A DNA stretch of 64,000 nt from NCBI GenBank assembly GCA_040880145.1, contig JBBDIZ010000029.1, positions 4,820 through 68,819 of the forward strand. Reading direction: 5' to 3'. Shown piece after piece: positions 33,455 to 34,024 of this stretch. Below the pieces are notes generated by a model. The model was given only the letters and a program-made list of their open reading frames with translations, searched no databases and was not told the origin of the DNA. Position 1 is the first letter of the stretch. Each line of letters starts with the position of its first letter. The stretch comes from Simkaniaceae bacterium. GTDB lineage: Bacteria; Chlamydiota; Chlamydiia; Chlamydiales; JAJFMI01. The position numbers were made by a program, and so were the translations under genes.

Positions 33455-34024
33455 CTATACCGAAACGACTTCAAAGTTTTTGGGTAGCTGGATCTCTTCG
33501 ATTTCACTAAATTTGCGCGCATTTACTAAACGTGTAATCAACACTTTCTCTTGAGGGGTTGAATCGATTGAGCATAAAGAATACTCCCCCTCGTGCTTGA
33601 GAAGTTTTAGATAAAAGCTCCACTTTAAAGCTAAAAGGTTTGAGCATCGGCCTAAATATTTGAGATAAGAGCTAAGGAGAAGATAGAGATCTTTACTGGG
33701 CTTCTGGGGGAGTTGGGTTTTCAAAATCATTTTAAAAAATTCAAAGGAAAGGCTCATTTTCTCCCAACTCTCTCTGATAGGCAAATGAAGATCTAGAAGC
33801 GTTCCGTCTCGATACTGAAAGAGTTCACCCCGGCCGGGCTGAAGATTGTAGTCACCCTTTGATAGAGGGCTGATTAAATTTAATTGAATTAGGTTTTTTT
33901 TTGAGGGGGCGTATGCGATAAAAGAGAGAAGACCCTCTTCTTTGGTCAAGAGGGTGCAAACTTTTTTTTCTTTAAGGATATCGATTTTTTTTAGAAGGAT
34001 GCCTTCAACTTTTATCGGTTTCAC
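33455..34024 (-). CDS. recO: DNA repair protein RecO (short form)
   Basis: 189 aa. An OB-fold-like N-terminus KVEGILLKKIDILKEKKVCTLLTKEEGLLSF is typical of RecO. No zinc-finger region. Confidence 0.55.
   Translation of the reverse strand: MKPIKVEGILLKKIDILKEKKVCTLLTKEEGLLSFIAYAPSKKNLIQLNLISPLSKGDYNLQPGRGELFQYRDGTLLDLHLPIRESWEKMSLSFEFFKMILKTQLPQKPSKDLYLLLSSYLKYLGRCSNLLALKWSFYLKLLKHEGEYSLCSIDSTPQEKVLITRLVNARKFSEIEEIQLPKNFEVVSV
33456..33474 (-). repeat. repeat family A copy (TATACCGAAACGACTTCAA), 1 mismatch
   Basis: The reverse complement TTGAAGTCGTTTCGGTATA encodes the last residues (FEVVSV) and the TAG stop of recO. Confidence 0.9.

Follow-up and report, generated by a model that had tools for sequence, protein, structure and literature searches.

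The question raised by this stretch of DNA is why three unrelated genes, which encode RecO, a LysM-domain membrane protein and a bactofilin-like membrane protein, end within copies of the same short repeat. An earlier note had proposed that family-A repeats supply the stop codons or C-termini of these genes, and all three of its coordinate claims hold, apart from one-base inaccuracies in the limits. The window, that is, the whole stretch of 64 kb that was analysed, from a Simkaniaceae MAG, contains eight copies of the family-A repeat, whose 23-nt consensus is TATACCGAAACAACTTCAAGAAT, in addition to one degenerate copy at 7035-7057. When up to 3 mismatches were allowed, the 23-mer had 7 matches in the window versus 0.00 expected, and its 15-nt core had 8 matches versus 0.41 expected. 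At least 20 of the 23 consensus positions are kept in the solo copies in the window, and four of the seven window loci of the repeat are convergent junctions. The evidence presented below makes it likely that the repeat is the terminal inverted repeat, approximately 23 nt long, of a MITE-type element and that the window copies are remnants remodelling gene ends.

The comparator for the gene ends was the contig of the closest LysM homolog (L102; protein P0010, 50% identity), which belongs to a distant relative with 39-50% protein identity. Its gene order, MORN - pheT - LysM - x - GH81 - 267-aa gene - recO, is syntenic with that of the window, and no copy of the family-A repeat was found in this contig. 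In the window, recO (189 aa; Pfam RecO_N) lies at 33455-34024 on the minus strand, and its last nine codons, PKNFEVVSV, are non-homologous to relatives. The 3' end of the gene, AAC TTT GAA GTC GTT TCG GTA TAG, encodes NFEVVSV and the stop, and is the reverse complement of the copy at 33456-33478. This copy is a solo terminal repeat on the plus strand, which is read from its inner side by recO, ending at the TAG at 33455-33457, while its outer end points towards the stop codon (33449-33451) of the convergent plus-strand neighbour (32678-33451). The last six codons and the TAG of recO had been assigned entirely to 33456-33474; these codons do lie in the copy at 33456-33478, but the C at 33455, which is the G of the TAG, is outside that interval, and the Phe codon, although within the copy, reaches 33475, past the limit of 33474.

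The C-terminus of this neighbour is conserved in the relative, ending ..FAIHF in the window and ..FAINF in the relative, each followed by the stop, and the alignment extends to the last residue. The window repeat sits exactly between the conserved stop of the neighbour and the body of RecO. In the relative, RecO (194 aa) ends ..ARTFDAIEGLTLTDSLGEKIQKLIANVT before its stop, and the last 28 nt of the gene overlap the convergent 267-aa gene. The homology between the two RecO proteins ends at 33485 of the window, corresponding to residue 178 of 194 in the relative, which has 16 further native residues. The tail after the conserved (A/S)RxF motif comprises 20-26 residues in six of seven database RecO homologs, the seventh of which (P0003) looks truncated, and 17 residues in the window; identity to relatives is 31-41%, and the last nine residues of the window RecO align to none of the homologs. 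The stop of homology at residue 178 of 194, together with the position of PKNFEVVSV in or next to the repeat, thus indicates that approximately 16 native residues of RecO were lost and 9 unrelated ones acquired. In the public annotation of this contig, the protein ends are identical for RecO (189 aa; P0001) and for the LysM protein (399 aa; P0009), and both database proteins match the window proteins at 100% identity. We also observed that the window RecO is without the Cys-rich zinc-finger segment of most homologs, as are RecO of the relative (194 aa) and P0002 (185 aa).

The gene for the LysM-domain membrane protein (399 aa) lies at 26842-28041 on the plus strand, and its Pfam LysM domain extends as far as residue 397 of 399. 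Its 3' end reads CCC AAT TCT TGA, in which AAT TCT TGA, encoding the final NS and the stop, lies within the copy at 28034-28056; as had been read from the sequence, this TGA (28039-28041) belongs to the TTGAAG of the copy. The LysM gene of the relative ends GGC AAA GAG CTG ATT ATC CCT TAG (GKELIIP, then stop). In a tblastn search of its product on the window, all 386 residues align, and the alignment stops with the final base of the Pro codon (28032), the 23-mer starting two bases further on, at 28034; 8 of 16 LysM homologs end at ..IP. Because the homology ends at ..IIP two bases before the repeat, the stop and the two additional residues of the window LysM protein derive from the repeat. The prediction that homology would end at the repeat boundary was therefore borne out for LysM (at 28032) and also for RecO, whose repeat-free ortholog has a different terminus. 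The copy itself is either a solo end or a 31-nt mini copy (28026-28056, minus strand). Its 23-mer is the exact consensus, and its outer end is 9 nt from the stop of the convergent gene at 28066-28524; the 31 nt also show similarity of family D1 (94% to 13919-13949). The possibility that this copy is a complete 31-nt mini element also encoding the conserved Ile-Pro was set aside, since repeat-free orthologs already end ..IIP; chance, or microhomology at the junction of a deletion, is the better explanation for the extra 3-8 nt of similarity at 28026-28033. The neighbouring segment from the LysM gene to tRNA-Leu (28059-29640) lacks a homolog of the 328-aa gene that the relative carries at this place, and contains overlapping opposite-strand ORFs (28066-28524, minus; 28451-29359, plus) bounded by two family-A copies; therefore, it appears to be a variable or decaying segment.

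The third gene encodes a bactofilin/DUF8173 membrane protein (12702-13868, plus strand; the start is uncertain, and the database protein has 368 aa). Its 3' end reads ATA TAC TGA, and the final Tyr codon and the TGA (13863-13868) lie, exactly as proposed for the copy at 13861, inside the repeat at 13861-13883. This TGA is a copy-specific C>T change (TATACTGA versus TATACCGA), which is the sole difference of the copy from the consensus; with the consensus C, the ORF would be eight codons longer, to RNNFKNRF and a stop. The repeat contributes at most 1-2 residues to the protein. The claim that the repeat redefined gene termini is consequently sound for LysM and RecO but weak for the bactofilin-like protein, whose tail after the last membrane helix is within the range of 4-20 residues in the family. 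A syntenic empty site for this junction was not found in the relative, where gene order differs. Removing TAC...GTA and one TA at 13858-13952 restores AAA AAG CCT ATA TAG (..KKPI, then stop), and the stop of the neighbouring gene is then 2 nt further on. Such a ..KKPI-TAG reconstruction with a TA duplication is suggestive but not proof.

The recO, LysM and bactofilin-like genes read the repeat in three different combinations of frame and direction (FEVVSV, NS and Y, each with the stop), and therefore share no coding or peptide module, only a raw sequence that happens to give a stop. Overall, the stop codon of a long ORF lies within three of the eight window copies. Under a null model of random placement, a 23-mer has p=0.022 of containing the stop of an ORF of 120 aa or more, and the probability of three or more in eight is 5.6e-4, a null that ignores selective removal of intragenic insertions; the excess is partly survivorship, in that a tightly packed genome purges insertions within genes. 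A long-ORF stop is contained in only 3 of the 128 end copies from other chlamydial loci, as opposed to 3 of 8 in the window (Fisher p=0.0025). We attribute the higher overlap in the window to its very tight convergent junctions (2-24 nt) and to the erosion of old copies.

To characterise the repeat beyond the window, the 19-mer TATACCGAAAYRACTTCAA was scanned in a 596-Gb collection with one genome per bacterial species. At least 101 loci were found; among the matches listed, approximately 80 fell in at least 10-12 bins labelled Chlamydiota or PVC, while approximately 20 were scattered single matches in unrelated bacteria, compared with approximately 17 chance matches estimated for this collection. 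The genome of the window was not among the matches listed. Dozens of the matches listed came from the Parachlamydiaceae bin CRAIB_MAG59 alone, and several each from at least nine other bins; the carriers besides CRAIB_MAG59 include Chlamydiae RIFCSPLOWO2_12_FULL_49_12, two Waddliaceae, Parachlamydiales SW_7, Chlamydiales 3300053785_128 and Parachlamydiaceae WGG20204. A few carriers among the listed matches are bins not labelled Chlamydiota, and at least one of these (an 'Acidobacteria' BOG bin) has genes clustering with chlamydial ones. Among the bins not labelled Chlamydiota, two have copies with an element-type continuation, as a mini form TATACC..GGATCGGTATA in CAVWWT01 (L091, labelled Verrucomicrobiae) and as GAGTCGGTTTT in JAFEGI01 (L050, labelled Verrucomicrobia); either the family reaches other PVC lineages, or these bins are mislabelled or contaminated.

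In these other chlamydial genomes, copies of the 23-mer form the terminal inverted repeats of an element of approximately 165 nt, which is non-coding and almost perfectly palindromic. Among the 23 full copies extracted, 22 are 164-166 nt long and one is 173 nt; their ends read TATACC...GGTATA, and TATACCGAAACAACTTCAA(A/G)AAT is found at both ends in 23 of 23. Each arm holds an invariant CGATCG, and the A arm (..GCGAAAGCTCC..) and the B arm (..CCAAAGTCCC..) show a conserved asymmetry that is common to different genomes. One full copy has a predicted fold of -117 kcal/mol (z=-19.9), a continuous hairpin with no ORF. Identity between genomes is 78-91% at the ends and 64-74% in the interior, although the copies were retrieved by an end-sequence search, and the apparent persistence of the ends is thus partly ascertainment. 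Centre-deleted derivatives of 94, 77, 71, 70, 63, 48 and approximately 31 nt occur elsewhere and mirror the window forms. With respect to stop codons, long ORFs that enter the element from outside at two further loci (L042, 4912-4934; L040, 2394-2416) stop at the TAA of the end variant AAATAA (consensus AAACAA), and a TGA lies in frame in the MGME-type end variant AAATGAC. Stops thus arise from common C>T or CA>TG variants of the ends, which is also the case at window position 13866. The sequences have several properties of a MITE: they are short and non-coding (164-166 nt for full copies and 23-95 nt for window copies), possess terminal inverted repeats at both ends in all 23 full copies, and are dispersed in multiple copies (dozens in CRAIB_MAG59 and 8-9 in the 64-kb window). 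Rfam has no family for the window repeats or the full elements, the full element was unmatched in a plasmid collection, and sequence and keyword searches of the literature found neither the repeat sequence nor MITEs in chlamydiae. In addition, a 2024 review of prokaryotic MITEs leaves chlamydiae unmentioned (PMC10969869). Apparently, this MITE-like family in environmental Chlamydiota is undescribed so far.

The window holds only decayed derivatives of this element, namely one 95-nt copy, mini-hairpins of 36 and 31 nt, and solo ends. The 95-nt copy (13858-13952) is internally deleted, with terminal inverted repeats at 13861-13883 (plus) and 13927-13949 (minus), and fills the space that separates the bactofilin-like gene from the convergent Asn/Asp-tRNA synthetase gene. 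Its arms of 33 nt are 88% complementary and separated by a 29-nt spacer, its predicted fold is -42.5 kcal/mol (z=-9.1), and it is 97% identical over 33 nt to full elements of the L068 type; it retains the start of the A arm (..GCGAAAGC) and that of the B arm (..CCAAAGC), the join being AAAGCTTT. The 36-nt mini element (24312-24347), located 13 nt 3' of the pheT stop, is a perfect 16-bp hairpin of two repeat cores, in which flanking GC extends the stem to 18 bp (predicted fold -28.9 kcal/mol, z=-11.5). The 31-nt mini element at 18445-18475 (TATACCGA...TCGGTATA; minus strand) lies in the divergent intergenic region of rpsD and a Fic gene, has a predicted fold of -12.1 kcal/mol (z=-5), and has counterparts of the same form in three other genomes (L056, L091 and L021). 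A solo terminal repeat (18499-18521, minus) is present 23 nt upstream of it, and another (29621-29643, minus) is intergenic, upstream of tRNA-Leu. None of the solo copies at 18499-18521, 28034-28056, 29621-29643 and 33456-33478 folds on its own. The degenerate copy (TATACCGAAATTCACTTGAAAAT; 7035-7057, plus) is upstream of tRNA-Arg. In approximately 12 kb of extra flanks from the same genome, at most one further copy was found, doubtful and degenerate: a possible TATACCAAAATAAAGTCAA...ATTTTGGT at L108 172-215, 4.7 kb upstream of the window start, which adjoins a tRNA-like contig end. An independent assembly of the same organism (L107, a contig of Logan SRR27977663) ends 36 nt into the element at 13861 (6100-6135 of that contig), which suggests that the repeat or its hairpin breaks assemblies of chlamydial MAGs, a usual consequence of repeats; presence/absence variation at that site was not seen in this second assembly, since its contig ends inside the element.

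Two other kinds of repeat were noted in the window. A motif of approximately 110 nt occurs twice, at 29681-29790 (plus) and 38880-38989 (minus), with 81% identity. The copies show a compensatory stem change (CCGTGGGGCTCACGG versus CCACGGGGCTCGTGG), then a conserved GGATGTTAAGCCTTTGGAGA and a second hairpin that differs in sequence yet is kept as a hairpin; in Rfam, the motif matched only RAGATH-18, at 24 bits and so below the cut-off of 44.9. The motif could be a structured RNA or represent a second repeat family, and its first copy (29681-29790) lies 38 nt from a family-A copy, upstream of tRNA-Leu. Another palindromic repeat family (TTTATGACTGCCCGCG...CCCA) is represented at 39039-39083 and 44933-44987, and the site at 44936-44987 is a palindrome with 26-nt arms.

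This palindromic element family is spread over several families of environmental Chlamydiota. The view that the repeats reflect mobility rather than ancient fixed signals was accordingly upheld: the repeat is the end of a multi-copy palindromic element of approximately 165 nt in many chlamydial genomes. The orthologous LysM, recO and pheT-MORN junctions of the relative are empty of the element, although at 39-50% protein identity this comparator is too distant for the events to be rigorously dated or polarised, and loss of the element there, instead of original absence, is formally conceivable. The flanks show a weak, symmetric preference for T (59%) and A (64%), T|TATACC...GGTATA|A, and no direct repeat was found outside the conserved TATA...TATA; a TA duplication would be inseparable from the element ends, and the pattern is compatible with a TA target without establishing it. 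A transposase gene flanked by these ends was not found in approximately 700 kb of repeat-bearing loci. Likewise, no recurrent ORF adjoining copies and no ORF enclosed by inverted ends appeared in 101 of the loci, and all-against-all clustering of 603 ORFs from repeat-bearing loci revealed no recurrent transposase-like protein. The only long-range inverted pair that might have represented an autonomous parent (L094, 1211-2336) proved to be two 48-nt mini elements around a host gene, and the ORFs adjoining solo ends look, by their sequences, like ordinary host genes.

Other explanations deserve consideration. One is that the termini never changed at all, in which case ordinary divergence would account for the C-terminal differences, and the dense packing of genes in a reduced genome for the overlaps. 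The window tail of the bactofilin-like protein is within the 4-20 residues of its family, some LysM homologs have short extra tails after ..IP, and a RecO identity of only 31-41% leaves room for divergence; against these points, LysM homology ends exactly at the repeat, a longer RecO tail is present in six of seven database homologs and in the relative while the last nine window residues align to none, and the stop codons themselves are repeat nucleotides, with the probability of 5.6e-4 under random placement given above. We regard coincidence as extremely improbable. It is very unlikely, too, that the 23-mer is a host-selected signal, kept at gene ends as, for example, an RNase III site, a bidirectional terminator, a site for a nucleoid or regulatory protein, or a sequence of the DNA-uptake type, with stop overlap as a consequence of its function. 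Such a signal would account for a 19-23-mer that is more similar across chlamydial families (78-91%) than the element interior, for solo copies that retain 20 or more of 23 positions, and for the location of four of seven window loci at convergent junctions; the hairpin at 24310-24349 also scores terminator-like. Nevertheless, the repeat is absent from both orthologous junctions in the relative and has no fixed position with respect to genes, since copies are found as well in the promoter region between divergent genes (18445-18521) and upstream of tRNAs; hairpin formation is impossible for the solo copies at recO and LysM, in other genomes 3 of 128 copies touch a stop codon, and conserved ends are equally predicted by a transposase-binding site. 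As for intrinsic (Rho-independent) terminators, only 24310-24349 was flagged, on the strand opposite to pheT and MORN, where it is read by no gene, and a consensus scan of the window gave a total of terminator-like sites not above that of shuffles; a terminator role thus found no support.

A further alternative keeps mobility and changes its agent: the sequences could be REP/REPIN-like, with hairpins serving as single-strand DNA substrates of a domesticated HUH tyrosine transposase (RAYT, IS200/IS605-like) and not of a DDE enzyme. The long, almost perfect hairpin, the location of copies at 3' ends and convergent junctions, the lack of a visible target duplication outside the element, and the absence of an adjacent transposase, as expected with a single-copy RAYT encoded elsewhere, would all suit this alternative. 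By definition, a REP is an imperfect palindrome of 20-40 nt whose 5' end carries a conserved tetranucleotide, GTAG or CGTC (PMC3733652), and the two kinds of sequence resemble each other in their intergenic hairpins, often between convergent genes, in inverted doublets that give long hairpins, and in varying copy number. However, the chlamydial ends read TATACC, without the GTAG/CGTC tag that marks most REP families (PMC3733652), the single unit (23-mer) is not a palindrome and its solo copies do not fold, and the flanks, with their symmetric T|...|A preference, agree better with a TA-type target. No RAYT gene was seen in the fetched repeat-bearing loci. We consider a REPIN-like nature unlikely, and a MITE-type element with decaying copies is our preferred reading.

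On that reading, the copies would have been inserted by a transposase acting in trans, probably at TA, and would have persisted only at sites of low harm in a tightly packed genome, that is, between convergent genes and at extreme 3' ends. Hairpin-prone copies may then have been eroded by deletion to palindromes of 95, 36 and 31 nt and to solo ends, and centre-deleted palindromes would be the expected product of hairpin-stimulated deletion. Where the stop or tail of a gene was removed by the insertion or by a later deletion, translation would enter the repeat and continue until the first in-frame stop. The LysM and recO genes enter a solo end from the inner side, which points to later deletion of the rest of the element and not to simple insertion. 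At recO, this deletion presumably took part of the gene's own tail along with the rest of the element: the approximately 16 native residues that appear to be lost belonged to an ancestral tail that probably overlapped the neighbouring gene, and the protein now ends PKNFEVVSV. In the same manner, LysM would have gained NS and a stop, and the bactofilin-like gene a Tyr and a stop via the C>T change that makes TGA.

We classify the sequences as a chlamydial MITE-like family, most comparable to the Correia elements of Neisseria and to the Rickettsia palindromic elements (RPEs). Correia elements generate a TA target duplication; because they too are without a known parent, a parent or transposase is not strictly required for membership of this class. 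A TA duplication is not demonstrated in the chlamydial element, in which no promoter or IHF site was identified. Correia elements (CREE/NEMIS) are non-coding, approximately 100-200 bp long, and have terminal inverted repeats of approximately 25 nt beginning with TATA; they are multi-copy and gene-proximal, are co-transcribed as hairpins, encode no transposase themselves and are able to interrupt or change coding sequences (PMC10969869). The chlamydial element is likewise short and non-coding, with ends starting TATA, multi-copy gene-proximal hairpins, no parent found and altered coding sequences, but it is unrelated in sequence, occurs in another phylum and is palindromic over nearly its full length rather than at the ends only. 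RPEs, palindromic selfish elements of approximately 150 bp, are incorporated into protein-coding genes of an obligate intracellular bacterium, where they insert in frame inside ORFs and encode a conserved peptide (PMC10969869). The chlamydial element is similarly palindromic selfish DNA within genes of an intracellular bacterium, yet it affects extreme 3' ends only, in three frames and with no common peptide, and 3 of 128 copies touch an ORF end in other chlamydial genomes; a protein-coding element of the Rickettsia type does not fit the different frames and directions in which the three window genes read the repeat. Finally, the terminal inverted repeats and the TA-flanked ends, with a compatible T|TA..TA|A context, recall MITEs of IS630/Tc1-mariner elements, although a parent insertion sequence with matching ends was not found in the approximately 700 kb of repeat-bearing loci.

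A more speculative idea is that the near-identical 19-23-nt ends across Simkaniaceae, Parachlamydiaceae, Waddliaceae and other lineages reflect a conserved, possibly domesticated, chlamydial protein that recognises them. We hold this to be decidedly unlikely; if it were true, hairpins and solo ends would form a phylum-wide functional system, and not merely decaying selfish DNA, with possible functions such as processing the 3' ends of RNAs where genes converge, organising the nucleoid or letting co-infecting chlamydiae exchange DNA; in reduced genomes, the hairpins and solo ends would then be an active source of new protein C-termini. For annotation, the element explains odd C-termini and contig breaks in chlamydial MAGs. 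The supply of gene ends by remnants of mobile elements is a familiar event in a new host group. The presence of the family in several chlamydial families, with ends better conserved than the interior, suggests recent activity or horizontal spread, and such spread would concern intracellular bacteria that are usually thought to be genetically isolated. The window is a clear example of how elements and deletion pressure in a compact genome rewrite gene termini, as in the tail of RecO.
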